Below are positions 1,562 to 56,687 of a DNA stretch of 64,000 bases, one piece after another (the first letter of the stretch is position 1; each line of letters starts with the position of its first letter). The notes under the pieces are model-generated. The model made no database searches, was not told where the DNA came from, and saw nothing but the letters and a program-made list of their open reading frames with translations. The DNA lies in contig JAWKUK010000026.1 of NCBI GenBank assembly GCA_041398605.1, positions 1,207 to 65,206 on the forward strand. The letters run 5' to 3'. The stretch is from Planctomycetota bacterium. Lineage in GTDB: Bacteria; Planctomycetota; UBA1135; GCA-002686595. The position numbers and the translations under genes are program-made.

Positions 1562-1562
1562 T

Positions 1563-1593: not shown

Positions 1594-1601
1594 GCCATTC
1601 C

Positions 1602-1702
1602 CGGGGCTTGCATTCTCGGGGCTTGCATTCCCGGGGCTTGCATTCTCGGGGCTTGCATTCTCGGGGCCAGCATCCCGGGGCCTGCATTCCCGGGGCCTTG
1701 GG
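1602..1702 (+). repeat. 15-bp tandem array, about 6.5 copies (CGGGGCTTGCATTCT and variants)
   Basis: Four near-perfect 15-mers lie at 1602-1661, followed by three degenerating copies. The array sits between the tRNA hairpin and the ATG at 1725. It generates the HSRGL x4 artefact at the start of ORF 1608. Confidence 0.9.
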
Positions 1703-1724
1703 CGCGCTATGCTCGCCCGCAGCC

Positions 1725-2471: not shown

Positions 2472-2531
2472 GCGCCGGGCGCGGCCCCTCGCGCGCCGCG
2501 CTGCAATCGAGCACCGCGCTCGCCCCCTGAC

Positions 2532-4088: not shown

Positions 4089-4132
4089 GGCGGGCCTGTC
4101 TGCTGCGCCGGCCTGAACCCATCGCCCTCTGT

Positions 4133-4927
4133 TCAGCGGCCCCGGAGGCGCTTCACGAGCCGCTCCGCGCGCCAGCGCGGGTATTGCAGCCAGCCGCGCA
4201 GGGCGCGGCGGCCCGGCGTCCACGCGCGCCACTCCAGCGACGGCGCGCGGTCGCGCGTCACGCACAGGTAAGGCGGGTCGAGGGCCGGGTCGAAGTCGCG
4301 CTGGCGCATGTACTCCAGCACGTACGCCCAGCGCGCCGCGTCCGTCGTGTTCGGGTCCGTCTTGTGCAACAAGAGCGACGAGAAGCACACCACGTCGCCC
4401 GGCTGCGCGGCCACGAAGACCGGCGCTTCGACCTCGCCGGTGTAGCGATAGTGGGTGCCCTCGCGGATGTGCGCCAGCCGGCCACGCAGGTGCGAGCCCG
4501 GCGCGAACCACACGCCGCCGTTCTCCGGCGTCATCGCCGAGAGCGCGACCCAGACCTGGAAGTGCTCGTCCTTCAGCGAGTTGTAGGCGTTGTCCTGGTG
4601 CCACGGGAACTCCGGCGCGCCCGGGCCCTTCGCCACACACTGGTCCCAGCGCAGCCACACGTCATCGTCCGCGAGCGCTGTCACGAGGTCCGTCAGCTCG
4701 CGGCGCGCGACGAGCGCGTGCAGCGCCGGGCTGTGGCGGAAGCAGTTCGAATAGAACTCCATCGCGCCGCGCGTCAGCGGGCTCGCCGCCGGCAGCCGCC
4801 GGCCCGCGTCCACGATCGCCGCGATGGCCGCGCGCACCTCCTCGGCCGACAACACGCCGGGCAGCACGACGAAGCCACGCGCGCGGAACTCCGCCACCCG
4901 CGCGGCGAGCGCGCCCGCGTCGCTCAC
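4133..4927 (-). CDS. phytanoyl-CoA dioxygenase (PhyH) family Fe(II)/2-oxoglutarate oxygenase
   Basis: Motifs FPWHQDNAY (HxD) and LLLHKTDPN. GTG start at 4927 overlaps the TGA of the upstream amidase gene (GTGA). The rest of the 689-aa track ORF is off-frame read-through. Confidence 0.8.
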   Translation of the reverse strand: MSDAGALAARVAEFRARGFVVLPGVLSAEEVRAAIAAIVDAGRRLPAASPLTRGAMEFYSNCFRHSPALHALVARRELTDLVTALADDDVWLRWDQCVAKGPGAPEFPWHQDNAYNSLKDEHFQVWVALSAMTPENGGVWFAPGSHLRGRLAHIREGTHYRYTGEVEAPVFVAAQPGDVVCFSSLLLHKTDPNTTDAARWAYVLEYMRQRDFDPALDPPYLCVTRDRAPSLEWRAWTPGRRALRGWLQYPRWRAERLVKRLRGR

Positions 4928-6033
4928 GGCAGCACGGTGAAGCGCAGGCCCTCGGACAGCCCGACCGGCGCCGCGGGCAAGAGGCCCGGGTCGCGGTACC
5001 ACCACTGCGTGTAGACCGTCGAGCCCGGGAAGAGCCCGCGGTTGACCAGGAAGCCCGACGTGATCGGGAGCTCGAGCCGCCCCGAGCACGCAACGTTCGG
5101 CAGGCCGTTCGAGAAGGCCACCTGCGTGCGCTGCGGCGCGTTCCCGAGGCACAACGTGCCGCCGAAGAACGGGATGTTCGCCGGCTGGTCCGACCACAGG
5201 AGGAGCCCGAACTGCTGCGTCAGGACCTGGTCGCAATACACGACGAAGTCGCTGGCCGCGAACGAGGGCGTGCCCGTGAACCCGATGGCCGGCGTGCAGC
5301 CCGCGGAGCTCGTCTTCGGCGAGCAGTACACGAGGGGCGCGTTCGCCTGCGGCAAGTACGGCGCGAGCCCGAAGTGCCGTTGGAGCGCAAAGAGGTGCGC
5401 CTCCGCCGACGCCTGCCAAGTCGCCGGGCTCGCGAGCACCGACGCGTCGATCGGGCTCGTCAAGAACCCGCCCTCGCTCAGCGACGCCGGCATCGTCGTC
5501 TCGCGCAAGACGTAGAAGTTCGCGGTCTTCGAGCCGCGGTCCGCGAGGCCCAGGCCGAGCAGCAGCTCCTCTTGCACCCGGTCGCGCAGGTCGGCGCTGA
5601 TCGTGCCCGCGGCGTAGCTGAAGGTCTCGGTCCCGTTCGCCGCCGAGCTGGAGAACGCGTTGTGGTGGATCGACACGAAGCGGTCCGCGGGCCACGTGTT
5701 CGCCAGCGTCACGCGGTCCGCGAGGGACACCGTGACGTCCGTCGTGCGCGTCAAGCGCACGTCCCACTCGCCGCCGCCCAGCGGGTCGGCCGTGTCGAGG
5801 TCGAGCAGGTCGCGCAGGCGCAGCGCGACCTCGAGGTTCAGCACCTTCTCGGTCAGCCCGTTCGCGACCGCGCCCGGGTCCGTGCCGCCGTGGCCCGGGT
5901 CGATCACGACGCGATAGGGGCTCCCCGGCCGCGGCGTGGCAGGGGTCGGTTCGAGCGTGCTGAACGCCGCGAGCGCTGCGATGCCGAGCACCGCAGCCGG
6001 CCCCGCGCCGCGCTGGATCATGGAGCGTTGCAT
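4924..6033 (-). CDS. N-acetylmuramoyl-L-alanine amidase (Amidase_3) with extra C-terminal QxWYRD domain
   Basis: Signal peptide. Motifs VVIDPGHGGTDPGA, FVSIHHNA, NGTETF and ANFYVLRETTMPASLSEGGFL are classic AmiA/B/C-type. The final ~140 aa (YCSPK...GCTP...LCLG...TQWWYRDP...) are unrelated to amidases. Confidence 0.85.
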   Translation of the reverse strand: MQRSMIQRGAGPAAVLGIAALAAFSTLEPTPATPRPGSPYRVVIDPGHGGTDPGAVANGLTEKVLNLEVALRLRDLLDLDTADPLGGGEWDVRLTRTTDVTVSLADRVTLANTWPADRFVSIHHNAFSSSAANGTETFSYAAGTISADLRDRVQEELLLGLGLADRGSKTANFYVLRETTMPASLSEGGFLTSPIDASVLASPATWQASAEAHLFALQRHFGLAPYLPQANAPLVYCSPKTSSAGCTPAIGFTGTPSFAASDFVVYCDQVLTQQFGLLLWSDQPANIPFFGGTLCLGNAPQRTQVAFSNGLPNVACSGRLELPITSGFLVNRGLFPGSTVYTQWWYRDPGLLPAAPVGLSEGLRFTVLP

Positions 6034-6093
6034 GGACCCTCAGGATACCCGTCGCGCCAAACCTTGGGCGGACGGTCGGTCCCGGTGCGGGCC

Positions 6094-6210
6094 GCCGAGG
6101 AGATCGTCGGGGTCGCCATCGGCGCGCACATGAGGTCGTGGAACGAGCTCGTCGTGTCCAGCGATGCGACAGCGCCCGCCACGACAGCGCCCACCAAGAC
6201 AAAACCGAAG
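6094..6210 (-). pseudogene. decayed fragment of an alanine/glycine:cation symporter 3' region
   Basis: About 87% nucleotide identity over ~87 bp to 8238-8324 of the intact AGCS gene. Weaker similarity continues after a 36-bp deletion. The translation FGFVLVGAVVAGAVASLDTTSSFHDLMCAPMATPTISSA matches FGFVFGAQ..GAGAVASLDTTISFIDLMFALMAIPTILSA. There is no upstream body of the gene. Confidence 0.75.
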
Positions 6211-6243
6211 GAGCGGTCGCCGGAGGTCAAGGCGCGGGCCCGA

Positions 6244-8040
6244 TCACTCTCCCTCGCGGGCCAGGCGCACCCCGGCGGGCTCGACCGGCCGCCCGGCAGT
6301 GAGCTCGGCGGAGACCCACTCGAAGACCCGCGCGTCGGCCGTGCGGCGCTCGGGCTCGCGCTTCTGCAGCGAGCCGAGCGGCAGCGCGAGGCGCGGGTTC
6401 TGCGCGAATGCCCCGCGATGGCGCGCGAGGAAGGCCCAGTAGAGGTCCGTCACCGGGCAGTCGCGCTTCGGGTCGAACGCACACGCGCCGCAGAAGTCGC
6501 CCATCCGAGCCAAGTACGCCGCACCCGAGACGTAGGGCTTGGTCACCATCGCGTCTCCAAGCGCAGGCGTCCCCATTCCGAGGACGTTCGGCTCGACGAC
6601 CCAGTCGTATGCGTCGGTGTAGGCGACCCAGAACCAGTCGGTGAGCTGGCGCGGCGTGACGTCGAGCAACGTCGCGAGGTTCGACAGCACCATCAGGCGC
6701 TCGATGTGGTGCGAGTAACCCTCACGCCAGACCCGCGCGGTGACGGTGTCGAGGCACGCGAGGCCCGAGGTGGGCGCAGGCGCGCCGTCCCACGCGCCCG
6801 GGAGCTCGCGCCACGGCGCGCGGCTGGACGCGCCGCGCTCGCGCGCGTCGGAGCGAGGCGCGGCGAGCGGCCCGTGGCGCGACACCTCTTGGGGCTCTGC
6901 TGCGACGTCGCTCCTGCCCGCGGCCGCGCCAGGATGCGCAGCGTGCTCTGTCTCTGTGGCGCGGGCTCCGAGCCAGAACGCCTGTGGCAGGGGGCGCCCG
7001 GCGCGCAGCTCGTTCTGCGGCAGGTCGCGCAAGCCGTTGCTCGCCGCGTGCACGTGCCGCACGAACTCGCGCCACCCCAGCACTTGTCGCACGAACCCCT
7101 CGCGCGCGGCGAGCGGCGCGTCGCTCGCGACGACGTCGGCCACGACCTCGCGCGGCGTCAAGAGGTGAACGTTCAGGTACGTCGCGATGCGCGCGTGGAA
7201 GAGGCCGACCTCTCCGGCGCTCATCGCGTCCTCGTACGCGCCGAAGTGTGGCAGGCACTCGGCCAGGAACCACTGCCACGCGCGCAGGGCGTCCGCGCGT
7301 GTGGTCGCGAGGCCCTCCAGGCGCTCGTCGCCGGGGTGTGCGCCGAAGCGCGCGCGCACGAGCGCTTGCACCTCGCGCTCGACCGGTCCGTGCACGAACG
7401 CCGGCGGACGCGGGGCGGGCGGTGTCCCGCGCCATGGCTTGCGGTTCTCCGCGTCGAAGCTCCACTTGCCACCGGCGGGGCCGTCGCCATCCAGCAGGGT
7501 CCCGGTGCGGCGCCGCACGTGCCGGTAGAAGCGATCCATGCGCCACGGCGGGCGCGGACCGACGGCCGCACGGAAGTCCTGGGCGGTCGTCAGCCAGCCG
7601 GCGTGCGGCAGCACGTCGAGGCGGCCGTCCGCGATGAGCGGCGCCAGCTCCTCGCGCAGCTCGTGCTCGGCGGGCTCCATGACGGCGAGCGAGCCGACCT
7701 CCGCCGCGACCCGCGCGAGCGGCGCCGCGAAGCCCTCGCCCTCTGGCGCGACCTCGTACCTCACCGCGACGCCCCGCTGCGCCTGCTCCAGCGCGAACCG
7801 GCGCTGCGCCGCGAGCACAAACGCCAGCTTGCGGCGGTGGTAAGGCCGCCGCGCCGCTTTGTCCGGGCACTCGACGAGGACCAGCCCGACCTCTTCGGGC
7901 GCGTGGTGCGCGAGGGGACCGAATCGATCCGAGAGCTGGTCGTACGGCGCGTACACCCAGCGTCGGCCGTCGGACCCGGCGCGCGGAAGGCGGTGCGCGT
8001 GGGTCGACGCGGCGTGTAGCTGCTCAAGGAAGGCCCCCAT
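6244..8040 (-). CDS. FeS-BCP type cryptochrome/photolyase family protein (PhrB/CryB-like, putative (6-4) photolyase)
   Basis: Family pattern includes YDQLS, KWSFDAENRKP, GAYEDAM, REGFVRQVLGWREF and GYSHHIERLMVLSN. The four-Cys pattern (LACLD ... DFCGAC ... RDCP) is typical of the iron-sulfur bacterial cryptochrome/photolyase group. ATG 8040 is preferred over 8115, which lies inside a tandem repeat. Confidence 0.8.
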   Translation of the reverse strand: MGAFLEQLHAASTHAHRLPRAGSDGRRWVYAPYDQLSDRFGPLAHHAPEEVGLVLVECPDKAARRPYHRRKLAFVLAAQRRFALEQAQRGVAVRYEVAPEGEGFAAPLARVAAEVGSLAVMEPAEHELREELAPLIADGRLDVLPHAGWLTTAQDFRAAVGPRPPWRMDRFYRHVRRRTGTLLDGDGPAGGKWSFDAENRKPWRGTPPAPRPPAFVHGPVEREVQALVRARFGAHPGDERLEGLATTRADALRAWQWFLAECLPHFGAYEDAMSAGEVGLFHARIATYLNVHLLTPREVVADVVASDAPLAAREGFVRQVLGWREFVRHVHAASNGLRDLPQNELRAGRPLPQAFWLGARATETEHAAHPGAAAGRSDVAAEPQEVSRHGPLAAPRSDARERGASSRAPWRELPGAWDGAPAPTSGLACLDTVTARVWREGYSHHIERLMVLSNLATLLDVTPRQLTDWFWVAYTDAYDWVVEPNVLGMGTPALGDAMVTKPYVSGAAYLARMGDFCGACAFDPKRDCPVTDLYWAFLARHRGAFAQNPRLALPLGSLQKREPERRTADARVFEWVSAELTAGRPVEPAGVRLAREGE

Positions 8041-45678: not shown

Positions 45679-45748
45679 GAGGCGGATCACTCGCCTTCGC
45701 GCAGCGTCGCGTCGAGGCGGATCACTCGCCTTCGCGCAGCGTCGCGTC
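45679..45748. repeat. 35-bp perfect tandem duplication spanning the stop codon of the M28 peptidase gene
   Basis: GAGGCGGATCACTCGCCTTCGCGCAGCGTCGCGTC occurs at 45679-45713 and again at 45714-45748. Confidence 0.95.
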
Positions 45749-48130
45749 GATGCGGTCCGCGAGCGCGTTGAGGCGCGCCGCGACGCGCCGTAGGCGCTCC
45801 AGCTCGATCACGACTTGCTTTGCGTCGCCGTCGTTCAACGCCTTACGCAGGCCCGGGAGCGGCCAGGAGGCGTATCCCGACGTCTCGTCGGGAGCCACGT
45901 ACAGGTTGCGGAACCATGGGCGGCCCGGGAGCCCGGCCTCGTCGAGCCACGCCCGGGGCCAGGCGTGCACGAGCTCGTCGAGCGCGCGGCGCTGTCCCTC
46001 GATCGCGACGAAGCTCGGCGCGCGCGCGTCGAGCGTCTCGTCGAGGGTCGCTGCCCGCGCTGCGAGCGCCTCAAAGACCGCGGCCACCTGGAGGATCCCA
46101 GTGCGCGTCGGGTCAGCGTCCGCCGGCGCCGCGGCGTCCTCGGTCTCGGAGGCTGCGGGCGGGGCCGGCCCTGCGAGGGCGATGAGGTGCGCGCGGGCCG
46201 CCTCCGGCCCTGCGGTCAGCGCGATCGACGCGAGCGGCGCCTCGGCGGCGCGCGCCGCAACGACGGCGGTCGCGCGGGCGATCATGCGCGCCGACGCGTA
46301 GTCCGAGCCGACGGTGCTGCGGTACCACGTCAGGTCATCGTAGATGGAGTGGTAGGCCGTGCCCTGCGCGCCGCCCGCCGAGAGGTTCACGCCGGGGATC
46401 CCCGTCAGGGCCAGGAACGGCGCGTGGTCGGAGCCGCCGCCGAGCTCGCCGAACGGCGCCGCGACCTGCCTATCGGCCGCTGCCGAGGGCGCCCACGCTT
46501 CGAGCACCGAGCCGCGGTACACGATCGCGCCGCTCGCGGCATTCATGGGGGGGCCGGCGCCCTCCGGGGCGGCGTCCGCACGCTGCGGCTGCGGCACCGA
46601 CGCCAGCGCGTCCGCGACGAGCGCGCGCGCCTCGGGCGTGGCCGCAGCGCCGAAGCTGAGGCCGTTCGCGGCCGCATCCAAGTTGATGTAGAGCAGCCCG
46701 TCGCGCGTCAGCTCCGCGCGGCGCGCTTCGACGTACTCCGCGCTGCCGATGATCCCGAACTCCTCGGCGCCCCACGCGGCGAACGTGATCGAGCGGCGCG
46801 GCGGGCCGTGCAGGCGCGCGTCCTCGGCGAACACGCGCGCCGCTTCGAGCACCGCGATCAACCCGCAAGTCGGATCGCTCGCGCCATAAGCCCACGCGTC
46901 GTGGTGGCAGCCGATGTAGACGCGCGGTCCGAGCGCTCCCACGCGCGGGTCGTCGTTCGGCCCGAGCGCCAACGGGCGCGTGCCCGAGCGGTCCAGCTGG
47001 GCGTCTCTGCCGCGCAGGGTCGCGAGGACATTGGCGGTGCGCACGAGCCGACGCTCTTGACGCACGGTCAAGCGCGCGCGCACCTCTGGGCCGCCGGTCA
47101 GGCGATAGCGCACGGGCAGCCCGCCCTGCCAATCCTGCGGCGCGCTCGCGCCGCGCATCGGGCCGAGCAGTTGCAGCGCGGCGGCCCAGCCGATCGGCTG
47201 GACCGGGATGCGCGGCAGCGCGAGGCCCTCGGGGTCGAGGCGCGCCGCGTCCTCGGTCGCTTCGATGTTCGGCGTCAGCGGATCGCCGATCCACGGCAGG
47301 GTCAGGATCGAGCCGCGTTGGATGCACGTGTCGTTCGCCCAGCCGCCCTCGGGCCATGCGAGCCCTTTGCCGTAGCCCGAGTCGCGCGGGTCGGTGTAGA
47401 TGACGAGGCCCGCCGCGCCGGCCTCCTCGGCGTACTTCGCCTTGTAGCCGCGGAAGTTGCCGCCGTAGCGCGCGACGACGATCTTGCCCGAGCAGTCGAC
47501 GCCGAGCTGCGCGAGCGCTTGGAAGTCCTCGCGCCGACCGTAGTTGGCGTAGACGAGCTCGCCCTCGACCGTGCCGCTGCCCGAGTACGCGTTCCAGCCG
47601 AAGTCGAGGCCGTCCGCCGACGACGTCGGGACCCCGGGCAGCGCGACCTCTTTCAGCGGCAGCTCGACCCGCGCGGGCGAGACGAGCTCGAGGCGCGCTT
47701 CGAGCGGCTGGGGGAGGTAAGCGACGAAGGGGTGCAGCTCGACCTCGAGGCCGAGGCGCGCGAACGCGTCGGCGAGCAGGCCGATCATGCGTTGGTCACC
47801 GGGCGACCCCGCGACGTGGGGGAACGACGCGACGCTGTCGTGCCACTCCGCCAGCCGCTCGGGCAGGATCGCGGCGAGCAAGCGCGCCTCGCGCTCGACC
47901 TGCGCCTGGGCGTCCTCGGCGGGCCAACGCTCGAGCCCCCGCGGCGGGGCTTGGTCCTGCGTCGGCGAAGGGTCCTGGGTTGGCAGGAGGGCCGGGGTTG
48001 CCAGCGGGGCCGGGGGTGGCAGCGGAGGCTGCGCCGGCGCGCCCGCGACGGCGAGCCAGAGCAGCGCGCCGTTGGCGGCGCAGGCTCCAAGTCGCGTCCG
48101 GTGGGACGCGGCGACAACGTTCGTCTGCAT
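45722..48130 (-). CDS. M28-family metallopeptidase with PA and transferrin-receptor-like dimerisation domains (glutamate carboxypeptidase II-like)
   Basis: Start ATG 48130 with signal peptide. The PA-domain segment is GKIVVARYG. M28 motifs are GCHHDAW and FAAWGAEEFGIIGS. The C-terminal helical region is PLPGLRKALNDGD. Confidence 0.8.
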   Translation of the reverse strand: MQTNVVAASHRTRLGACAANGALLWLAVAGAPAQPPLPPPAPLATPALLPTQDPSPTQDQAPPRGLERWPAEDAQAQVEREARLLAAILPERLAEWHDSVASFPHVAGSPGDQRMIGLLADAFARLGLEVELHPFVAYLPQPLEARLELVSPARVELPLKEVALPGVPTSSADGLDFGWNAYSGSGTVEGELVYANYGRREDFQALAQLGVDCSGKIVVARYGGNFRGYKAKYAEEAGAAGLVIYTDPRDSGYGKGLAWPEGGWANDTCIQRGSILTLPWIGDPLTPNIEATEDAARLDPEGLALPRIPVQPIGWAAALQLLGPMRGASAPQDWQGGLPVRYRLTGGPEVRARLTVRQERRLVRTANVLATLRGRDAQLDRSGTRPLALGPNDDPRVGALGPRVYIGCHHDAWAYGASDPTCGLIAVLEAARVFAEDARLHGPPRRSITFAAWGAEEFGIIGSAEYVEARRAELTRDGLLYINLDAAANGLSFGAAATPEARALVADALASVPQPQRADAAPEGAGPPMNAASGAIVYRGSVLEAWAPSAAADRQVAAPFGELGGGSDHAPFLALTGIPGVNLSAGGAQGTAYHSIYDDLTWYRSTVGSDYASARMIARATAVVAARAAEAPLASIALTAGPEAARAHLIALAGPAPPAASETEDAAAPADADPTRTGILQVAAVFEALAARAATLDETLDARAPSFVAIEGQRRALDELVHAWPRAWLDEAGLPGRPWFRNLYVAPDETSGYASWPLPGLRKALNDGDAKQVVIELERLRRVAARLNALADRIDATLREGE

Positions 48131-48252
48131 ACAGCGCGCGGGTATCTGCGATGGGACCCCGGATCGGGGACATCGAGGATACCCGCGCGGAGCAGGTCGC
48201 AGTCGGAGGACCTCAGGCAAGGCTCGAGCCGTGGCTCGAGCGCCCCCGGGCG

Positions 48253-48543
48253 TCACGCCTTCGCTTTGGCCTTGACCGGCTTGATCACACCGGCCTTGAG
48301 CAGCGTCGGGTAGGCGCCGTTCTTCGTGATCGTCCGCAGGGCACGCGTCGAAACGCGGACCGTCACGAAGTCCTGCATCTCGGGCACCCAGATGCGCTTC
48401 TTCTGCACGTTGACCTTGTAGGTGCGCTTGGCGCGCCCCGTGGTCTTGAGGCCGACGCCACCCTTCTTCTTCGGGAGACCGCGGCGGGCGATGGTGCCGC
48501 CGCTGCGGGTTCCTGCACCCGTGATCTGACAGACGCGAGACAT
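48253..48543 (-). CDS. rpmB: 50S ribosomal protein L28
   Basis: MSRVCQITGAGTRSGGTI...KRTYKVNVQKKRIWVPE is the L28 signature. It has a Lys/Ala-rich C-terminal tail. Confidence 0.92.
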   Translation of the reverse strand: MSRVCQITGAGTRSGGTIARRGLPKKKGGVGLKTTGRAKRTYKVNVQKKRIWVPEMQDFVTVRVSTRALRTITKNGAYPTLLKAGVIKPVKAKAKA

Positions 48544-48726
48544 GGTGGACTCCGGACGTTCGGAAGGGGCCCCAAGGCTGGGGCCGATGGCATCAAGTGG
48601 TGTGCGACGGAGCCCAGGCGCGCGCGCGCCCTCCGTCGACGTAGGGCCGGAGAGGTTAGCGAGGGCCCGGCGGATCCGCCAGGAGCCGGCGCCACAAAAT
48701 CCGATCCGTCGGCGGGCCCAGGGCCC

Positions 48727-49821
48727 TCATTCGCCCCAGATGCGGACGGTGACCCGGCCCTTGGAGTCGATCCAACCCCGGTACATGCCCGAGCTGTTGA
48801 AGGGGGCTGCTGCGCGCCCGGCGGGGGTCAGGGCGATCCAGCCGCCCTCGCCGCCGCGCTCGGTCAGCTCCGCGAGGGTGCCCGCCGAGGCCGCACCGAC
48901 GTCCTGGCCCGCGTGCAGCATCCGGGCATGGACGTCGTGCGCCACCGCGCCGCGCAGGAAGAACTCCCCGTGGCCCGTGCACGAGACCCCGACCGTGCGG
49001 TCGTCCGCCCAGGTCCCCGCGCCGATGATCGGCGAGTCGCCCACGCGGCCGAAGCGCTTGTTGGTCATGCCGCCGGTGGAGGTCCCCGCCGCGAGCCGCC
49101 CGGCGCCGTCCCGCGCGACGCAGCCGACGGTGCCCAAGTAGGCGCGTGGCGCGGCCGCGCTGCCCGCGGCGGTGCGCGCCTCGTCGGCGAGCGCCCGCTC
49201 GAGCGCCTGGCGCCGCTTCTCGGTCGTGAACCACCCGTTCGGCACGAGCTCGAGCCCGAGGTCCGCCGCGAAGCGGTCCGCGCCTGCGCCCGCGAGCAGG
49301 ACGTGCGGCGTGCGCTCGAGCACCGCCCGCGCCAGCTCGATCGGGTGGCGGACGGTCGTCACGCCGGCGACGGCCCCAGCGGCGACGCCGTCTCGGCCGC
49401 TGCCGACCATCAGCGAGGCGTCGAGCTCGTGCCGCCCCTCATGCGTCAGCACGGCGCCGCGCCCCGCGTTGAAGAGCGGCGAGTCCTCGAGGATGCGGAT
49501 CGCCGCGATCACGGCGTCCTCGGGCGCGCCGCCGCCTTGCAGCGCCGCGTGGCCGGCGCGCAGCGCGGCCTCGAGCGTCGCGCGGTACTCGGCCTCCAGC
49601 TCTGCGGGCATCTCCGCGCGGTCGAGCGTCCCAGCGCCGCCGTGCACGATGAGCACCACATCGTCCGCGAGGTCCAGCGTCTGCCCGGCGGGGGAGACGA
49701 GCGCCGCGTCGCGCGAGGCGGCGCTCTGGTTCGGCGCCGAGGCGCAGGCAGGGAGCAGGGCCAAGGCGGCGAGCGCTGCCGCGTGACCGACCGGCGCGAA
49801 GATCGAGGAGGGCGTACGCAT
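48727..49821 (-). CDS. isoaspartyl peptidase/L-asparaginase (Ntn hydrolase, Asparaginase_2), lipoprotein
   Basis: Lipobox is LLPACA. Motifs IVHGGAGT, nucleophile GTVGCVARD and GDSPIIGAG. Confidence 0.85.
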   Translation of the reverse strand: MRTPSSIFAPVGHAAALAALALLPACASAPNQSAASRDAALVSPAGQTLDLADDVVLIVHGGAGTLDRAEMPAELEAEYRATLEAALRAGHAALQGGGAPEDAVIAAIRILEDSPLFNAGRGAVLTHEGRHELDASLMVGSGRDGVAAGAVAGVTTVRHPIELARAVLERTPHVLLAGAGADRFAADLGLELVPNGWFTTEKRRQALERALADEARTAAGSAAAPRAYLGTVGCVARDGAGRLAAGTSTGGMTNKRFGRVGDSPIIGAGTWADDRTVGVSCTGHGEFFLRGAVAHDVHARMLHAGQDVGAASAGTLAELTERGGEGGWIALTPAGRAAAPFNSSGMYRGWIDSKGRVTVRIWGE

Positions 49822-49862: not shown

Positions 49863-50783
49863 TTAGCGCACGCGGTGATACCGGACGGGCGAGCCGTCCG
49901 GGTTCGCCGGGAGCTGGAGGATGCGGGCGCGTGCGAGGATGCGCCGCGCGATGTCGAACCAGATCCCGCGCAGCTTCGCGGGCGAGAGCCCGCCGGCCTC
50001 GATCGCCTCGAGCTGTTTGACGAGGCCCTGGGCGCGACCCTCCTGAGCGACGGCGTAGGAGCGGGCCTCGCTCAGGATCTGGTTCGCGAGCGCCTCGGCG
50101 TTCTGCAGCTCGCGCAGGCGCACGCCGCGCGCCTCGACGAGCAGCCGGTCAGCCTCCGCGCGCGCATCGGTGACGCTGTTGAACGAGTGGATGACCATCA
50201 GCGGCGGCGCGGTGTTCAGCACCTCGACGGAGGTCACGCGCACGCCGATGCCGAGCGCGTCTGCCGCGGCCTGGATCCCGTCCCGGGCGCGCACCTGCAG
50301 CCCGGCGGCGCCCGGCGCGAGCACGTCTCGCACAGGCGTCCGCGCGACGAGCTCGGAGAGGACCTTCTCGCCGATCCGTCTCAGCGCGAAGGAGCGGTGG
50401 CCGAACTCGCCCTCGTTGTCGGCGACGTGAAAGAGCCACGCGGCGGGGTCCTCGACGCGATAGAGCACGTTCGCGCGCAGCTCGACGATGTTCGTGTCCC
50501 CGGTCAGCCACTGCACCTCGTTCGGCAGGGGGTCGATGCCGCGCTCGGCGTCTTTCAGGCGATAGCCGATGGGCATGCGCCGCATGAGGCCGACGTCGAC
50601 GCGCTCGACGCGTTCGAGCGGCCAGGGCAGCTTCAGCGCGACGCCAGGCGCGACGACGCGCGCGGCGCGGCCGTACCGCAGCACCACGCCGCTCTCGCCC
50701 GCGGCGACGGTCGTCACGCCGGTCGATAGCCACGCCAGGAGCGCGAGCGCGACGAGCGCCAGCCGGATGCGGCGCGCGCTCAC
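49863..50783 (-). CDS. SPFH/band-7 protein, HflK/HflC-like
   Basis: GTG 50783 overlaps the upstream TGA. An N-terminal TM is followed by GESGVVLRYGR..APGVALKLPWPLERVERVDV, LTGDTNIVEL and a long coiled coil. Confidence 0.8.
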   Translation of the reverse strand: MSARRIRLALVALALLAWLSTGVTTVAAGESGVVLRYGRAARVVAPGVALKLPWPLERVERVDVGLMRRMPIGYRLKDAERGIDPLPNEVQWLTGDTNIVELRANVLYRVEDPAAWLFHVADNEGEFGHRSFALRRIGEKVLSELVARTPVRDVLAPGAAGLQVRARDGIQAAADALGIGVRVTSVEVLNTAPPLMVIHSFNSVTDARAEADRLLVEARGVRLRELQNAEALANQILSEARSYAVAQEGRAQGLVKQLEAIEAGGLSPAKLRGIWFDIARRILARARILQLPANPDGSPVRYHRVR

Positions 50784-51694
50784 TCCTTCTGGCCTCCGCT
50801 GAGCGGCGCCGGGGCGCCGAAGAGGCTGGCGTCGAACACGCGCAGGAGGGGGTGCTCCGACGTCATGATGATCTCCGTGTCGCCTTGGGTGGCGTCGAAC
50901 AGCTCCGCCGCGCGCAGGAGCTCGACGAGCTCGGGGTACGTCTCGCGCGCAGTCGCTTGCAGCTCCGCCGCGCGGGCGGTGGCGGCGCCCCGGATCTCGA
51001 GCGCTTCTTCGTTCGCGCGCGCGATGCGCTCCGCGACCTCGGTCTCTGCGCGGGTGCGGATGTCGCTGGCCTCGGCGCGCCCGCGGCTGCGGATCTCCTC
51101 GGCCTCCTGCTCGCGGTCGGAGCGCATGCGCTCGAAGATCTGGTCCTTGTTGGACTGCGGGAAGTTGATGCGCTTGATGCCGGCGAGCTCGATGTGGACG
51201 CCCGAGTCGTCGGCCGCGACGCGCCGGCGGACCTCCGCGGTGAGCTCTTCGGCGACGGAGTCGAGCGTTCGTTCGCGCTCGTCGATCGAGACGAGGTCCG
51301 CGATCGGGCCCTTGTTCAGCACGTCCGTGACCGACGACTTCAGGACGCTCGTGAGGCTCAGCTCCGCGGCTTCGCGCGTACGCAGCCGGACCAGGAACGA
51401 CTTCGGATCTTCCACGCGCCACGCGACGAACGCGTCGACGATGATGTTGCGCTGGTCGCGTGTCAGGTACTCCGCGGGCGTCGGGTCCAAGAGGTGCACG
51501 CGGCGGTCGACGCGCGCGACCGTGTCGATCGGCGCCGGCCACTTGACGTGGAGCCCCGCGTCCACGATCACGCGCTTGGGCGCGCCGAAGCGGTGAACGA
51601 CGGCGGCCTCGCCCTCGGTGACGGTGAATGTGGCGCTCCACGCCGCTGCTGCGGCGAGGCCGCCGAGCAGCCAGAGGAGGGTGGTGAACTTCAT
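50780..51694 (-). CDS. SPFH/band-7 protein, HflC-like
   Basis: ATG 51694 (MKFTTLLWLL). Motifs TEGEAAVVHRFG, GLHVKWPAPIDTV, YLTRDQRNIIVDAFVAWRV and FERMRSDREQEA. Confidence 0.82.
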   Translation of the reverse strand: MKFTTLLWLLGGLAAAAAWSATFTVTEGEAAVVHRFGAPKRVIVDAGLHVKWPAPIDTVARVDRRVHLLDPTPAEYLTRDQRNIIVDAFVAWRVEDPKSFLVRLRTREAAELSLTSVLKSSVTDVLNKGPIADLVSIDERERTLDSVAEELTAEVRRRVAADDSGVHIELAGIKRINFPQSNKDQIFERMRSDREQEAEEIRSRGRAEASDIRTRAETEVAERIARANEEALEIRGAATARAAELQATARETYPELVELLRAAELFDATQGDTEIIMTSEHPLLRVFDASLFGAPAPLSGGQKE

Positions 51695-51789
51695 GGGCCG
51701 TTCAAGGGAGTGGCGCGAGCGTGGCGCAAGGGCGGGCCCCGGCGCGAGCTTGGTGACGAGTGTCGGCGCGGTGCATGGGGGGGCGCGCG

Positions 51790-53976
51790 TCAGCGCTCGC
51801 GGCGGTCGGTCGGCGCCTGGAAGATGTCCTGTGGAGGGGTCGGGACGTTGCCGCCGCGCGAGCGGTCGTACGTGTCGATGAGGACCTTGTCGAGCAGGAT
51901 CAAGAGCGTGCGCCCTGAGCCAGTGCGCGCGGAGAGCGTGCGCTCGAGCTGATCGAGCCACAGCACCGCGGCCGTCGCGCGGGGGCGCGCGGCCCAGACC
52001 TCCCCGAGCGCGCGCAGGGCGCCGGATTCACCGGAGGCGCGCGCGGTCTCGCGCAGCGCGTCGGCCTCCGCGGTGCGCACGGTTGAGAGCGCGGTGTCCT
52101 CGGCGTTCGCGCGCTTGATCGCGATCGATTGGCGCGTGCGGTTGACGGTCGTCACGCGCTCCTCGGAGGCGCTCGCGACGTCGCGGAAGGCCGTGTGGAC
52201 GCGGCCGGGGGCGTGGGCGCTGCGGATGTCGACCGCGAGCACCTCGCAGCCGAGGGCCAGCGCCGAGCTGCGCTCGCGCAGCCGCGCGACGACGAGCGCT
52301 TCGAGCGCATGGGTCGAGTCGTTCAGGACCTCGCGCCAGGAGAGCTTGGCCGCGGCCGAGCGCAGCGCGCCCTCGGCGAGCGCGCCAACGAGCGCGTCCG
52401 GGTCCTCGTGCCCGAAGCGCCACGACTTGGCGTCGAGCACTCGATAGCGGACGGTGTAGCCGATCGACAGGATGTACTCGTCGCGCGTCAGGACCTCGGC
52501 CTCCGCCGCGAGCCGCTCGTGTTCGACGCGGGCGCGCACTGGGTCGAGCGCGCCGAGGTCCTCGTTCAGCCCTTCGTCCTCGCGGAAGCCGTAGCTGCGC
52601 AGGCGGAGCTCGCCGACCGCGACGGTCTCGAGGCGCGTGAACGGCCACGGGGCGTGCCAGCGAGCGCCGGGCCCCTCGATGGTGTCGAGCACGGCGCCGA
52701 AGCGCACGAGGAACCCGGTCTCGCCCGGCCGCACGACGGAGAGCCCGGTCGAGGCGTAGGCGGCGCCGAGCGCCAGCACGGCGGCGCCGCGCACCGCAGG
52801 CGAGGTCGGGTCGAAGCCGAGCGGCCGCGTCACGGTGCCGAGCGCGCGCGCGAAGCGCAGGTCGACCCGTTGGCGCAGCGCCGAGCGCAGGACGAGCAGC
52901 GCGACGACGGCGCCCGCGATCGTCGCGAGCGCGCCGTGTTGGACATCCTCGGCGCCGACTTGCATCGCGGTCGGGTCGAGCCCGAGGAAGGGATACAGCG
53001 CGTTCACGAGCGCCCCGAGCGCGAGCGAGCAGGCGGCGATCGACGCGAGGTAGACCGCGAGCACTTGGCGGCCGAGGAGGCTGCGCACCACGAGGATCGT
53101 CGCGATGTTGGTCGCGGGTCCCGCGAGCAAGAGGACCAGCGCCGCGCCGGGATCGAGCCCTTTGGCCATCAACGCCGCGGCGACGGGCGTCGTCGCGGAC
53201 GCGCAGATGTAGAGCGGGACGCCGGCGACGAGCATCGCGAACATCGCGGGCCAGCCCTTGAGCAGCGTCCCTGCGCCGAAGAAGTCGTCGGGCACGAGGA
53301 CGACGATCAGCCCCGCGAGCGCGAACCCGAGGACAAACCAGGGCGCGAGGTCGTCGAGCAGCGTGCCAAACGAGTAGCGCATGGCGCGGCGCACGACGTT
53401 GCCCTCGCCCTCGGCGGGGTCGTGGACGTGCGTATGCGCGTGGTCATGCGCGTGGTCATGCCCGTGGTCATGCCCGTGGTCAAGCCCGTGGTCATGCCCG
53501 TGCGCTTCGCATGCGACGGCGGCGGGCTCTGCGGCGGGCGCTTCGTCGCCTGCGCGCCCATGCTTGACGAGCCCGTTGACGAGGACCCCGGACACAAACG
53601 CCGTGAAGAACGCCGCGATCGGCCGCAGGATCGTCATCAGCGGGTCCATCAAGGCCCACGTGACGCCGACCGATTCGACGCCGATCTCCGGCGCGGAGAT
53701 CAGGAACGAGGTCGTCGAACCCTTGCTCGCCCCCGAGCGCCGTAGCTGCGTCGCCGTCGGGATGACCGAACAGCTGCACATCGGCAGCGGCACGCCTAGC
53801 AGCGAGGCGATCGTGACGGAGCGCACGTCGTTGCCGCCGATGTGGCGCACGATCCAGCGGTCGGGGATGAGCGTCTTCAGGAGCCCGGCGATGACGAAGC
53901 CGAGCAGGAGATACGGGCCCGAGGACGCGAGCACGAACCAGATGGCGCCGAGCCAGTCTGCGAGGAAGCTGCCCAT
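51790..53976 (-). CDS. fusion protein: UPF0718/DUF318 (SO_0444-like Cu/Zn) permease with His-rich loop + C-terminal SPFH/band-7 domain
   Basis: The N-terminal ~400 aa carry GVPLPMCSCSVIP, FLISAPEIG, the loop HGHDHGLDHGHDHGHDHAHDHAHTHVHD and a second permease half. A TM is then followed by GETGFLVRFG..WHAPWPFTRLE..LTRDEYILSIGYTVRYRV and a coiled coil. Confidence 0.8.
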   Translation of the reverse strand: MGSFLADWLGAIWFVLASSGPYLLLGFVIAGLLKTLIPDRWIVRHIGGNDVRSVTIASLLGVPLPMCSCSVIPTATQLRRSGASKGSTTSFLISAPEIGVESVGVTWALMDPLMTILRPIAAFFTAFVSGVLVNGLVKHGRAGDEAPAAEPAAVACEAHGHDHGLDHGHDHGHDHAHDHAHTHVHDPAEGEGNVVRRAMRYSFGTLLDDLAPWFVLGFALAGLIVVLVPDDFFGAGTLLKGWPAMFAMLVAGVPLYICASATTPVAAALMAKGLDPGAALVLLLAGPATNIATILVVRSLLGRQVLAVYLASIAACSLALGALVNALYPFLGLDPTAMQVGAEDVQHGALATIAGAVVALLVLRSALRQRVDLRFARALGTVTRPLGFDPTSPAVRGAAVLALGAAYASTGLSVVRPGETGFLVRFGAVLDTIEGPGARWHAPWPFTRLETVAVGELRLRSYGFREDEGLNEDLGALDPVRARVEHERLAAEAEVLTRDEYILSIGYTVRYRVLDAKSWRFGHEDPDALVGALAEGALRSAAAKLSWREVLNDSTHALEALVVARLRERSSALALGCEVLAVDIRSAHAPGRVHTAFRDVASASEERVTTVNRTRQSIAIKRANAEDTALSTVRTAEADALRETARASGESGALRALGEVWAARPRATAAVLWLDQLERTLSARTGSGRTLLILLDKVLIDTYDRSRGGNVPTPPQDIFQAPTDRRER
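53438..53502 (-). repeat. 12-bp coding tandem array (~5.4 copies) encoding (H-D/G-H-x) repeats of the permease loop
   Basis: GCGTGGTCATGC/CCGTGGTCATGC units, read directly from the sequence. Confidence 0.9.
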
Positions 53977-53979
53977 GGC

Positions 53980-55134
53980 TCAGGCCCCTCCGACTTCGTG
54001 CACGAGGTACATGATCGTGACGCCGGCGCAGAGGAGGCCGATCTTGAGGAACACGTCCTCGCGGTGGTGGAACACCTCGGGCAAGAGCTCACCGATGCAC
54101 ACGTAGAGGAAGGTACCCGCTGCGAGCGCGGTCAGCACGGCGATCCCGCCGGTCCCGAAGAGCGCTGTGACTTGGTGCCCTAGGAGGAGCCCCAGCGGCG
54201 TGACAAAGGAGAACGCGATCACCATGGCGAGGACGCGGCGCGGGTCGGGCGAGCTCATCGAGAAGACCGACGCGAGGCTGAAGGACTCGAAGCCCTTGTG
54301 CGCGAGGATCGCCCACAGCATCACCGACGCGATCGCTTGGTTCTCCGCGACGGCGGCCAGCGCGACGCCCGAGGTGAGCGAGTGCACCGTCAACCCGACG
54401 AGGGCTGCCCAGCCGACGGCGCGGTGTCGCTGGGACTCGCGGCTCGGGGCGGGCCGCGGCGCCGGCTCGCTGTGCCCGTGCTGCCCGTGCCCATGATCGT
54501 GCCCGCGCCCATGGTGCCCCAGCTCAGCATGTTCGTGCCCAGCATGCTCGTGCCCAACATGCTCGTGCCCAGCATGTTCGTGCCCAGCATGCTCGTGCCC
54601 GCCGGGCCCAGCGCCGCAGCCTGCCTGGTGCGGGTGGTTGTGTCGACCCGGGACGATGAGCGCCTCGACGAAGTACACGCCCACGACGCCGAGGAGCACC
54701 CAGAGCCAGACGCTGGACGACCCGTGGGAGTGGCCGTGGCCGGCGGCGGCCGCGCCGCTCCCTGACGCCGTGCCCGCCTGCGGCGCGGCGCCCTGCGCGG
54801 CGCCCTGCGCGGCATCCTGCGCCGCAGCGCCAGGGTCCGAGGGCGCGCCCTGGTGCTGGCTCGCCAAGTGATCTGGCACGCCATCACCGTTGTGGTCGTG
54901 CATCGCCGCCTGGCCGGGCGCGTCGCCGCCGAAGTTCGGGCCCCAGATCAGGTCCGCGTGCGCCGTCCCCGCGACCGCGCCCACCATCGGCAAGAGGTGC
55001 AGGAAGACCGCGCCCAGGAACACCCCCGACGCCAGCGCGAGCGCGGCGTGGAACTGCCGATCGCTCCACTTGAAGAGCAATGGCAACGCGCCGCCCAGGA
55101 GGCCGACGGTGAGGATCGATACGAACTCCAGCAT
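53980..55134 (-). CDS. ZIP-family metal transporter with very long His-rich cytoplasmic loop
   Basis: N-terminal TMs with LHLLP. The loop is GHEHAGHEHAGHEHVGHEHAGHEHAELGHHGRGHDHGHGQHGH. The C-terminal half carries HSLTSGVAL, HKGFESFSL and GTFLYV. The stop lies 3 nt before the next ATG. Confidence 0.82.
   Translation of the reverse strand: MLEFVSILTVGLLGGALPLLFKWSDRQFHAALALASGVFLGAVFLHLLPMVGAVAGTAHADLIWGPNFGGDAPGQAAMHDHNGDGVPDHLASQHQGAPSDPGAAAQDAAQGAAQGAAPQAGTASGSGAAAAGHGHSHGSSSVWLWVLLGVVGVYFVEALIVPGRHNHPHQAGCGAGPGGHEHAGHEHAGHEHVGHEHAGHEHAELGHHGRGHDHGHGQHGHSEPAPRPAPSRESQRHRAVGWAALVGLTVHSLTSGVALAAVAENQAIASVMLWAILAHKGFESFSLASVFSMSSPDPRRVLAMVIAFSFVTPLGLLLGHQVTALFGTGGIAVLTALAAGTFLYVCIGELLPEVFHHREDVFLKIGLLCAGVTIMYLVHEVGGA
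54526..54600 (-). repeat. 15-bp coding tandem array x5 encoding (GHEHA)5 of the ZIP loop
   Basis: AGCATGYTCGTGCCC occurs five times in perfect register. Confidence 0.92.
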
Positions 55135-55241
55135 GGGGGGGGGCGCGCGCGGCCCGAGAGAGGGTGCACGATCGTGCCCAGCCGTCGCTACGGCGGAGCG
55201 CTCGATTCGATAGGGGCGGCAGTGTTGTTACGCTCGTTTCG

Positions 55242-55967
55242 ATGACCCCCTCGGACCCAGCGCTCACTGAGCCCGCCGGCCTGCCGCCGCTCGTGGGCGG
55301 CTGGGAGCGGCGCGAGCACCCGCTCGAAGGCGCCTCGAGCGCGCGCCCGGTCACCCTGTGGGTCCCGCGGGCGCCGGACGCGCTCCTGGACGACGCCGGC
55401 GTCATCGAGCGCAGCCAGTTCCACGACGTCATGCCGTACTGGGCGTGGCTCTGGGACTCCGCGCCGCGCATGGCGGCCCTCGTCGCGCGCGCGGCGTGGC
55501 CCAGCGGCGCGCGGGTCCTCGAGCTCGGCGCGGGCCTCGGCCTGTGCGGCCTTGTCGCAGCGCGGCTCGGGTGCGCGGTCACCTTGTCCGACCACGACCC
55601 GTTGGCGCTCGCGGCGCTGCGGGTGAACGCGGACGCCAACGGGCTCTCCGATGTCGCCGTTTGGGACCTCGACTGGCGCGCCCTGGAGGGGCTGCCGCCG
55701 GGCGAGGCGTCGCGCTTCGACGTGGTGCTCGGCTGCGACGTCGTCTACGAGGCGCAGGCCCACGGGCCGGTGCTCGACGTCTTGGAGCGCTGCCTCGCCC
55801 CCGGCGGCGAGGCGTGGATCGCCGACCCTGGTCGCACCCGCGCGCCGTCGTTTGTGCGGCGCGCCGAGGCGCGCGGCTTCAGCGTCGAGGTGCGGGACGC
55901 CGCTGGCGCGCCTGCGGCGCTCGCGCCGAGCGAGTTCCGCCTCATGGCGCTGCGCGCTCGCGCGTGA
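55242..55967 (+). CDS. class I SAM-dependent methyltransferase (Methyltransf_16 / protein-lysine MTase-like)
   Basis: Start ATG 55242. Motifs YWAWLWDSA, RVLELGAGLGLCGL, VTLSDHD and VLGCDVVYE. Confidence 0.72.
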   Translation: MTPSDPALTEPAGLPPLVGGWERREHPLEGASSARPVTLWVPRAPDALLDDAGVIERSQFHDVMPYWAWLWDSAPRMAALVARAAWPSGARVLELGAGLGLCGLVAARLGCAVTLSDHDPLALAALRVNADANGLSDVAVWDLDWRALEGLPPGEASRFDVVLGCDVVYEAQAHGPVLDVLERCLAPGGEAWIADPGRTRAPSFVRRAEARGFSVEVRDAAGAPAALAPSEFRLMALRARA

Positions 55968-55970
55968 CGC

Positions 55971-56687
55971 TCAGGCGCGCCCGCGGTTCCGTGGCAGATG
56001 CCGGCGCGCGCCGCCCTCGAACGGCGTCCAGAGCCCCGCTTCCTTGCCCAGCGCCTTGACGGCGTCGTTGGTCCACACGTTGCACGTGCGGAACAGGTGG
56101 TAGGAGCCGCTGCCCTCGAAGAAGCGGTCGCTGCCGTAGTAGCCGGGGTGGTCGATCCGCTTGGGGCGGCCCGCGGCGTCGCGCGCGAAGCTACGGTCGA
56201 GGAAGTCGACGAGCCGCGCGTACGCCTCGCTCGAGACCCGCAGCAGGTGCACGTCGTCGCTCTCGGCCGGCGGCCCGCTGTAGGGCGTGACGTGCATCGC
56301 GGTGGCGCTGGGCCAGAAGACCGCGTGGAGCGCGGTCCCGACCGTGAGGTCGTCCCAGGTCGGCGTGTCGAGGAAGAACCCCCGGTCGCCCCAGCCAAGG
56401 CCGACGTAGCCCGTGCTGGGGACCCACAGGTCGCCCTCGAACCACGCAGGCCAGTCGCGCGCGGGGTCCTGGGCGGGGAGCCAGAGGTCGACGTGCACGC
56501 CGTTCGAGACGAGGTAGATGTCGATCGTCCCTTCGAGCGGGTCCGCGCCGCGGTTCACTGGGATCCGCGCGCCGAGCGCGCTCGCGGCCGCGTAGGCGAG
56601 GCCCAGCGCGATACAGGCCAAGAGCCCTCGCAGCGGCCACTTCAGCCAGCGGCGGAGCCGCTTCAGGAATGCGCTCATCGGCGTCAT
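55971..56687 (-). CDS. TIGR02117/DUF2459 family protein
   Basis: An N-terminal TM is followed by IYLVSNGVHVDLWLP, GLGWGDRGFF and the C-terminal YHLFRTCNVWTNDAVKALG, which is characteristic of the family. Confidence 0.72.
   Translation of the reverse strand: MTPMSAFLKRLRRWLKWPLRGLLACIALGLAYAAASALGARIPVNRGADPLEGTIDIYLVSNGVHVDLWLPAQDPARDWPAWFEGDLWVPSTGYVGLGWGDRGFFLDTPTWDDLTVGTALHAVFWPSATAMHVTPYSGPPAESDDVHLLRVSSEAYARLVDFLDRSFARDAAGRPKRIDHPGYYGSDRFFEGSGSYHLFRTCNVWTNDAVKALGKEAGLWTPFEGGARRHLPRNRGRA

Follow-up and report, generated by a model that had tools for sequence, protein, structure and literature searches.

A conserved planctomycete gene block in which an SO_0444-family permease continues into an HflK-like SPFH protein

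Gene content of the block

The stretch of DNA considered here, which we will refer to as the window, consists of 64,000 nucleotides of a Planctomycetota genome assembly (GCA_041398605.1, contig JAWKUK010000026.1, positions 1,207 to 65,206) and has a G+C content of about 72%. Listing of the open reading frames (ORFs), translation, and scans with Pfam and NCBIfam profiles identify in it a block of four genes, all on the minus strand (positions 49863-55134), which code in this order for a ZIP-family metal importer of 384 amino acids (aa) (53980-55134), a 728 aa fusion of an SO_0444-family permease with an HflK-like SPFH protein (51790-53976), an HflC-like SPFH protein of 304 aa (50780-51694) and a second, free HflK-like SPFH protein of 306 aa that starts with GTG (49863-50783). 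The fused and the free HflK-like subunits will be referred to as K1 and K2, respectively. The stop codon of the ZIP gene is separated from the start of the fusion gene by a 3-nt gap (TGA GCC ATG), and the HflC-like and K2 genes overlap by 4 nt (GTGA), with the GTG start of K2 lying on the upstream stop codon, whereas the sequence between the fusion gene and the HflC-like gene reads as a 95-nt spacer (51695-51789). An initial annotation of this region had described the genes as tightly packed, which is true of these two junctions but less so of the one behind the fusion gene; the gene content, the shared orientation and the two junctions that it reported were all borne out by translation and by the Pfam and NCBIfam scans. 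In other genomes the junction between the fusion and HflC-like genes is either an overlap or a gap of up to ~85 nt, and overlaps of stop and start codons are frequent within the block. A sequence scan detected no terminator-like site inside the four genes, and based upon the gaps, the overlaps and the conserved gene order the block is predicted to form a single operon.

The product of the first gene matches the ZIP family (PF02535) with a score of 131.3 bits, against a cut-off of 35.1. It is an 8-transmembrane (TM) ZIP protein with a His-rich loop between TM3 and TM4 (21 His in 83 aa) and a second loop that contains 8 His in 93 aa, and it is not a ZupT equivalog (23.9 bits, where 252 are required).

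The fusion protein is 100% identical to one from a Planctomycetota metagenome-assembled genome (MAG). Its permease domain (aa 1-368; 52873-53976) matches the profile of the SO_0444 family of Cu/Zn efflux transporters (NF033936) with 378.6 bits against a cut-off of 300, with aa 13-364 covering profile positions 2-349 of 351, and the ArsP_1 domain (PF03773) spans aa 21-325 with 160 bits. In an AlphaFold2 model of the fusion that was based upon an alignment of 76 sequences (mean predicted local distance difference test score, pLDDT, of 81.8), the permease has the ArsP_1 fold and consists of two repeats of four TM segments with broken helices, followed by TM9 (aa 349-368). The helix breaks fall at the invariant motifs CSCS (aa 67-70), which is unchanged in all 76 homologues, and PLYIC (C258), and this 4+4+1 layout agrees with the topology published for SO_0444 (Q8EJL9; PMC7176098). 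The central loop, of which aa 139-193 (53398-53562) are disordered and rich in His, Asp and Glu as judged from composition and pLDDT, contains 14 His in 72 aa in addition to 14 Asp/Glu (family averages 6.9 and 13.8, respectively); its pLDDT is below 50 over aa 152-186, and in most relatives it carries a CC motif. Loop composition confirms the initial annotation's statement that both transporters carry His-rich loops. SO_0444 is needed for Zn/Cu tolerance in Shewanella (PMC3219624), and induction data are available for an SO_0444-type transporter of Nitratiruptor (PMC10092412). By virtue of its family membership, the fused permease is a predicted Zn/Cu efflux-type transporter. The two proteins had earlier been described alike as Zn/Cu-type transporters; both are metal transporters, but they are not equivalent, the ZIP protein being an importer and the fused permease of the efflux type.

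The permease is followed by a junction (aa 369-411; 52744-52872) which in the AlphaFold2 model consists of an Arg-rich linker helix (aa 371-386) and a TM anchor of the HflK type (TM10, aa 393-411). The remainder of the protein (aa 412-728 and the stop codon; 51790-52743) comprises an SPFH domain, a coiled-coil helix and a C-terminal tail. The Band_7 domain (PF01145) is detected at aa 414-615 with 54 bits, and the modelled coiled-coil helix is 70 residues long (aa 594-663). Against the HflK equivalog profile TIGR01933 the fusion scores 102.5 bits, which is below the cut-off of 159.4. The best match of the fused SPFH half among PDB entries is E. coli HflK, both by sequence (phmmer) and by fold (Foldseek) (7vhp_E, 9cz2_XA, 7vhq_E), and the TM anchor, SPFH domain and long coiled coil that make up the HflK architecture are all present in the model. 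According to this model, what is appended to the permease is a complete HflK-type protein, TM anchor included.

The HflC-like gene, which has HflK-like genes at both of its sides, starts with the ATG at 51694; a longer ORF reaches back to a GTG at 51961, but the homologues align from MKFTT. The protein has an N-terminal TM helix, an SPFH domain (PF01145, 93.7 bits) and a coiled-coil helix of 73 aa, and with 124.6 bits against TIGR01932 it falls just below the cut-off of 134.4. E. coli HflC is its closest PDB relative by sequence (7vhq_G/7vhp_G, E 2e-24, phmmer) and by fold (7vhq_G, E 3.5e-20, Foldseek; pLDDT of the AlphaFold2 model 86.6). For K2 the corresponding scores are 60 bits for PF01145 and 128.8 bits for TIGR01933, again below 159.4, and its best PDB match (phmmer) is E. 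coli HflK; it shares 27% identity with the fused HflK domain. Because all three proteins score under the equivalog cut-offs, they are referred to here as HflK/C-like rather than as HflK and HflC.

Distribution of the block and of related exporter fusions

Fusions of PF03773 with PF01145 are present in at least 120 protein clusters (clustered at 90% identity), which are 40-74% identical to the window protein, originate from isolates as well as many assemblies, and belong nearly all to the Planctomycetota. A scan with the SPFH half of one genome per GTDB species found carriers in 19 species (a lower bound; the scan used a single peptide pattern), all of them labelled Planctomycetota or "uncultured bacterium" and among them the cultured species Saltatorellus ferox Poly30, whose genome is complete. 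Gene order was compared in 25 loci besides the window, which were collected by the species scan, by individual look-ups of homologues and by tblastn synteny. In all 25 an HflC-like gene comes after the fusion gene, and next to it stands a second HflK-like gene in each of the 24 loci that extend far enough. A ZIP gene is the immediate upstream neighbour of the fusion in 22 of the 24 loci where this could be assessed (23 of 25 if the window is counted). The invariant core of the block consists of the exporter::HflK fusion, the HflC-like gene and the second HflK-like gene, and the ZIP gene is a frequent but not an obligatory companion.

The two loci in which ZIP is missing differ from each other. 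One of them (L025) has no importer gene. In the other (L004, positions 5423-7941, and likewise L005; a genome of 6.4 Mb) the position of ZIP is taken by genes for an ABC-type ATPase, a MacB-type FtsX permease and a DUF3299 protein, which resemble ZrgC, ZrgB and ZrgE, respectively. DUF3299 corresponds to ZrgE of the Zur-regulated zinc-uptake system ZrgABCDE (PMC9817125). From these resemblances L004 looks like a case of non-orthologous replacement of one zinc importer by another, and an importer is co-encoded in 24 of the 25 assessable loci including the window (23 ZIP, one ZrgBCE-like).

The flanks of the block vary by lineage: an ArsR/SmtB-type HTH_5 regulator gene lies upstream and purH/guaA lie downstream in L002, a mechanosensitive-channel gene is found beside the block in L026 and L028, and a glutathione S-transferase gene in L027. 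Selection therefore appears to act on the block itself. A survey across genomes had been put forward in the initial annotation as a check on the block, and the present survey shows that it recurs in divergent genomes and is not specific to one strain. Judged from gene order, its recurrence in 25 of 25 other loci with unrelated flanks places the arrangement well beyond chance. The opposite view, that the genes are neighbours merely by shared ancestry and that the fusion is an artefact of annotation or assembly, could draw on the run of asparaginase, L28 and M28 peptidase genes downstream of the block in the window, whose synteny is of the lineage-level kind; but the ORF of the fusion is uninterrupted both in the window and in 120 or more independent clusters, the block persists under differing flanks, and the same fusion is found in three unrelated exporter families (see below), and we regard this view as hardly credible.

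The SPFH half alone was also searched against 1.84 billion cluster representatives, and its relatives were scanned with the Pfam and NCBIfam profiles. Many of these relatives are ~580-660 aa or ~990-1030 aa long. The 150 closest representatives at 50% identity included 69 proteins fused to ArsP_1, 17 fused to a P1B-type ATPase and 16 fused to a cation diffusion facilitator (CDF), together with five that have N-terminal extensions of unassigned family and 43 free proteins or fragments. The ATPase part of the P1B-ATPase::HflK proteins scores 535-611 bits against TIGR01525 (cut-off 346), has the TM6 motif CPC in 121 of 122 cases and is without an N-terminal HMA domain. In a dedicated search at least 118 of the best 120 clusters were fusions of this kind, and their hosts are Armatimonadota (including Candidatus Fervidibacter), Acidobacteriota (Blastocatellia and Thermoanaerobaculia) and Planctomycetota. 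The CDF::HflK proteins have the HxxxD motifs in TM2 and TM5, and in them the linker and HflK stand in place of the cytoplasmic C-terminal domain. Fusions of these two kinds together extend over Acidobacteriota, Armatimonadota and Planctomycetota, and their HflK domains pass the equivalog cut-off (160-200 bits against 159.4).

The module around these fusions is of the same type. Wherever the contig extends, an HflC-like gene follows every ATPase::HflK and CDF::HflK gene that was examined. A second HflK-like gene is present in two of three ATPase::HflK loci (L029 and L031), its place being taken in the third (L030) by a gene for a 247 aa protein without a Pfam match, and in all four CDF::HflK loci that reach that far (L032, L034, L035 and L036). 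No adjacent importer was seen in the ATPase and CDF modules examined, and the CDF::HflK modules sit among housekeeping genes (gyrB-gyrA). The three transporter folds are unrelated and share only the export of soft metals, and all are joined at their cytoplasmic C-terminus to the same type of SPFH subunit. Since three unrelated exporter folds carry the same fusion in the same type of module, these comparisons strongly support a functional coupling between metal exporters and an HflK/C-type assembly. On the same grounds, the block in the window may be regarded as the version found in planctomycetes of a broader class, "metal exporter::HflK + HflC (+ HflK)", which also occurs with P1B-ATPases and CDFs. 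In a neighbour-joining tree the ArsP-fused domains group together, and those fused to ATPases and CDFs are intermingled with free HflKs. A deep paralogy of K1 and K2 and a count of the fusion events were considered but not retained; the interleaving supports only the statement that there are three partner families.

Some other proteins were noted among these relatives. Directly upstream of the ATPase::HflK gene in L029 (3013-5985) and L031 (1555-4521) lies a gene for a protein of ~990 aa, which has only faint matches to DUF3604 and Reg_prop; the fusion proteins of these two loci are 42% and 74% identical, respectively, to one query protein. Two HflK-like proteins, P0231 (556 aa) and P0283 (561 aa), have an N-terminal extension of ~260 aa without a Pfam match, which may represent a fourth kind of fusion partner.

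Membrane orientation, proposed assembly and competing readings

By the parity of the TM segments, an argument that depends on their predicted number, the N-terminus, the His/Cys-containing central loop and the SPFH domain of the fusion are placed together, across the membrane from the linker. The linker contains an average of 5.3 Lys+Arg in 28 aa across the 76 homologues, and because it is rich in these residues it is most likely cytoplasmic, with the SPFH domain periplasmic as in E. coli HflK. Application of the positive-inside rule to the permease gave an ambiguous result (4.6 vs. 5.1 Lys+Arg on its two sides), and the permease is oriented solely by the Arg-rich linker and by analogy with the ATPase and CDF fusions. 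In P1B-ATPases and CDFs the C-terminus is cytoplasmic, and an HflK anchor fused to it should therefore cross the membrane outward and bring the SPFH domain into the periplasm. For the modelled fusion protein a cytoplasmic linker and a periplasmic SPFH domain are hence the predicted arrangement.

The reading that we favour, with moderate confidence, is that the block is a conserved operon for a membrane complex of metal homeostasis, in which the exporter is held by an HflK/C-type ring of K1, the HflC-like protein and K2. Through the complete HflK-type protein that extends its C-terminus, the Zn/Cu exporter would provide ring subunit K1. Together with the HflC-like protein and K2, K1 would co-assemble into a hetero-oligomeric ring or dome at the periplasmic side of the inner membrane, so that the exporter stays within the membrane patch that is enclosed, or at its edge. 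A free K2 is retained almost everywhere, which suggests that some HflK positions cannot accommodate a bulky transporter, and K2 would probably take these. The ZIP protein, presumably co-transcribed, or in one genome the ZrgBCE-like importer, would work with the exporter complex, and the whole would likely serve to keep metal export confined and under control, whether the exporter is corralled or is presented to FtsH in the cage. Co-assembly is proposed here by analogy with the E. coli proteins, where HflK and HflC form an assembly of 24 alternating subunits (PDB 7wi3, 9cz2; PMC12048511); the stoichiometry of the planctomycete assembly, its periplasmic orientation and its influence on transport are expectations of the same kind. 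The ring could act upon the exporter in three ways, viz. by confinement, by turnover through presentation to FtsH, or by forming a periplasmic metal chamber. The initial annotation had proposed an SPFH microdomain or cage dedicated to organising or gating metal transport; the tie between the SPFH paralogues and metal transport is supported by the covalent fusion, the conserved block and the ATPase and CDF fusions, whereas gating was pure inference.

Several observations weigh against this reading of the block as an operon for an exporter-holding ring. The 95-nt gap behind the fusion gene in the window fits a single operon and co-transcription less well, and the window's three SPFH proteins all score below the curated HflK/HflC equivalog cut-offs. 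To have an importer and an exporter in one operon would make little sense without regulation at the post-translational level; it is possible that such control via the His-rich loops explains their presence together. The vicinal Cys pair that is common in the central loop of the relatives would be better suited to the reducing cytoplasm than to the periplasm that TM parity implies. Lastly, no conserved operator of the Zur, ArsR or CueR type was found upstream of the ZIP gene in the window and 20 other upstream regions; a Zur or CueR box upstream of 55134 had been among the features that the initial annotation proposed looking for.

The role of FtsH leads to a different, though overlapping, reading. 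The SPFH proteins may simply be the HflK and HflC of this lineage that still cage FtsH, so that the fused exporter sits beside the protease and undergoes regulated turnover or quality control, its abundance following the metal status of the cell; the cage would then not be dedicated to transport, and the difference from the favoured reading lies mainly in the central role given to FtsH. FtsH may well be a partner, since the ATPase- and CDF-fused HflK domains pass the HflK equivalog cut-off (160-200 bits against 159.4). Many of the fusions carry the NCBI label "FtsH protease activity modulator HflK", the location of CDF::HflK among gyrB-gyrA is where a housekeeping complex would be expected, and HflK/C is known to control the proteolysis of membrane proteins by FtsH (PMC12048511). 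The window's own SPFH proteins, however, are divergent and below the cut-offs, almost every module contains a second HflK paralogue that an E. coli-type HflK/C does not need, and a His that is conserved in exporter-fused HflKs (described below) is missing from the canonical ones. The P-type ATPase MgtA is a substrate of FtsH in Salmonella, which also speaks for a role of the protease. The FtsH hallmarks (Walker A and HExGH) were not found in any frame of the 64-kb window, which counts weakly against such a role. In E. coli the hflKC genes (hfq-hflX-hflKC operon) are also unlinked to ftsH, and for this reason the lack of a nearby ftsH is uninformative; the initial annotation's remark that no ftsH is present is correct for the window but is no evidence of independence from FtsH. 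The reported HflK-FtsH contact residue Arg191 was tried as a marker and rejected, as the numbering used here places an Ala at this position in PDB 7vhp chain E and the conserved Arg nearby belongs to the general SPFH "ALR" motif. Taken together, we consider an FtsH-adaptor role to be possible but unlikely as the main function of the block.

The His in question belongs to a DVH[PA]P motif where the SPFH2 region meets the coiled coil (H588 of the window's fusion protein; 52213-52215). It is present in 97 of 98 exporter-fused HflK domains (ArsP 66/66, ATPase 17/17 and CDF 14/15), and neither the K2 and HflC-like proteins of the window nor free HflKs with a canonical N-terminus have it. One may speculate from this pattern that the conserved His binds metal and forms a ring of ligands in the assembled dome. 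If the exporter discharged Zn/Cu into the lumen of a closed periplasmic dome, with the acidic His/Cys loop and such a His ring binding the metal and the importer retrieving it on demand, the complex would serve for metal storage or buffering. TM parity, by which the SPFH domain and the His-rich loop share one side of the membrane, the occurrence of the His in 97 of 98 fused domains and the co-encoded importer in 24 of 25 assessable loci (23 ZIP, one ZrgBCE-like) are all consistent with this. It is, however, entirely inferential: HflK/C assemblies can be open, nautilus-like structures (PMC12048511), no importer adjoins the ATPase and CDF modules that were examined, and the exporter may lie outside the ring. 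We consider a storage chamber of this kind improbable. A broader proposal, in which we place little faith, is that in several phyla HflK/HflC-type periplasmic domes with tethered SO_0444, P1B-ATPase or CDF exporters are metal-handling chambers, where exported Zn, Cu or Cd would enter an enclosed periplasmic space lined by the acidic, His-rich loops and the His ring, and from which the planctomycete ZIP would recover the metal. Should it be true, such domes would represent the bacterial equivalent of a compartment for zinc storage, and they would be the first SPFH cages known to have a defined client built in.

Relation to known systems and surroundings of the block

The component parts of the block come from known families (ZIP, SO_0444/ArsP_1 and HflK/C-type SPFH proteins), and SPFH domes with channels or proteases are already known. 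Its closest counterpart is the E. coli HflK/HflC-FtsH complex (PDB 7wi3, 7vhp, 9cz2), which likewise has HflK-type and HflC-type subunits encoded by adjacent genes (the subunits alternate in E. coli), each with an N-terminal TM anchor, an SPFH domain and a long coiled coil, and which provides the best sequence and fold matches for the three SPFH parts of the block. In contrast to E. coli, the block has three paralogues rather than two, in the order K1-C-K2; one of its HflKs is fused to a 9-TM metal permease, and its SPFH proteins lie below the equivalog cut-offs and show the conserved His at the SPFH2/coiled-coil junction. The SO_0444 family (NF033936) shares with the fusion permease the 4+4+1 TM layout, a CxC motif and the His-rich central loop, as well as a metal-related context, with a ZntR-type regulator (SO_0443) in Shewanella (PMC3219624) and an ArsR-type gene upstream of the block in L002. 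However, the characterised members of this family are stand-alone proteins of ~350 aa, whereas the block's permease continues into an HflK-like protein and adjoins a ZIP gene.

Rings or domes of SPFH proteins that surround a membrane patch with specific channels, transporters or a protease, as is proposed here, are also known from stomatin, prohibitin/m-AAA and erlin, and the dome of human stomatin can enclose AQP1 and UT-B (PMC12407830; PDB 9zd2). Those assemblies are non-covalent and eukaryotic and have homo- or hetero-dimeric subunit types, whereas the block is bacterial and metal-specific, has three paralogues and has its client fused. The SPFH-NfeD operons (QmcA-YbbJ, PDB 8z5g; Hinderhofer 2009, PMC2636767) resemble the block in being conserved bacterial operons of an SPFH protein and a membrane partner, but the SPFH proteins of the block are of the HflK/C and not of the stomatin/QmcA subtype, and Pfam scans found no NfeD domain or gene in the block or the related loci. 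The 2009 survey of prokaryotic SPFH proteins mentions no fusion to a permease or transporter (PMC2636767), and none of the four block proteins matched the anti-phage defence models of PADLOC. The initial annotation knew of no description of such an arrangement; our literature searches likewise found none of an exporter::HflK fusion, of the three-paralogue module or of the convergence across three exporter families, all of which appear to be undescribed.

In work on what SPFH cages (HflK/C, prohibitin, stomatin and flotillin) do to the proteins they enclose, bacterial clients other than FtsH have been hard to define. Here the gene fusion itself names the client, and it does so with three unrelated transporter folds that are all soft-metal exporters. 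The cultured S. ferox Poly30, with its complete genome, offers a tractable system for asking if a transporter is confined, regulated or degraded by an SPFH ring, and what the second HflK paralogue is required for. This work flags as chimeras hundreds of proteins whose present annotation reads "FtsH protease activity modulator HflK" or "Cu+-exporting ATPase", and the results suggest that Planctomycetota, Acidobacteriota and Armatimonadota possess a layer of Zn/Cu/Cd homeostasis that has gone unrecognised.

The upstream neighbours of the block in the window are an ORF for a class I S-adenosylmethionine-dependent methyltransferase (55164-55967, plus strand; best Pfam match Methyltransf_16) and a gene for a DUF2459/TIGR02117 protein (55971-56687, minus strand), whose adjacency to the block is not conserved in other genomes. 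Only ~30 nt separate the ZIP start from the divergent methyltransferase ORF, and no sigma-70-like promoter was found for the block. A perfect 12-bp palindrome, GCACGATCGTGC, lies at 55166-55177, 32-43 nt ahead of the ZIP start codon, and overlaps the methyltransferase ORF at its GTG. It was rejected as an operator, being neither significant (6 of 100 shuffles reach the observed count) nor conserved in the 20 other upstream regions.

In other genomes, further genes were noted beside the block. The L002 locus (1470-7111; likewise L003) comes from a marine MAG labelled Gemmatimonadetes and has, further upstream of its ArsR-type gene, an AbiEi/AbiEii toxin-antitoxin pair and an IS66 fragment; its phylum label may be unreliable, because every other carrier belongs to the Planctomycetota. 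A protein of ~510-540 aa that combines Redoxin/AhpC-TSA and NHL-repeat parts is encoded immediately upstream of ZIP in L026 (4629-6161) and L028 (4502-6121).

Downstream of the block in the window (45722-49821), a run of genes on the minus strand encodes an isoaspartyl-peptidase/asparaginase_2 protein with a lipoprotein-like signal (48727-49821), ribosomal protein L28 (48253-48543) and a peptidase with PA, M28 and TFR_dimer domains (45722-48256). This asparaginase-L28-M28 run is common only to a Saltatorellus-like subset of the loci (L001, L006, L007, L009, L012, L017, L019 and L022-L024). The M28 peptidases are zinc enzymes, and the run may reflect either a functional linkage or the synteny of this lineage.

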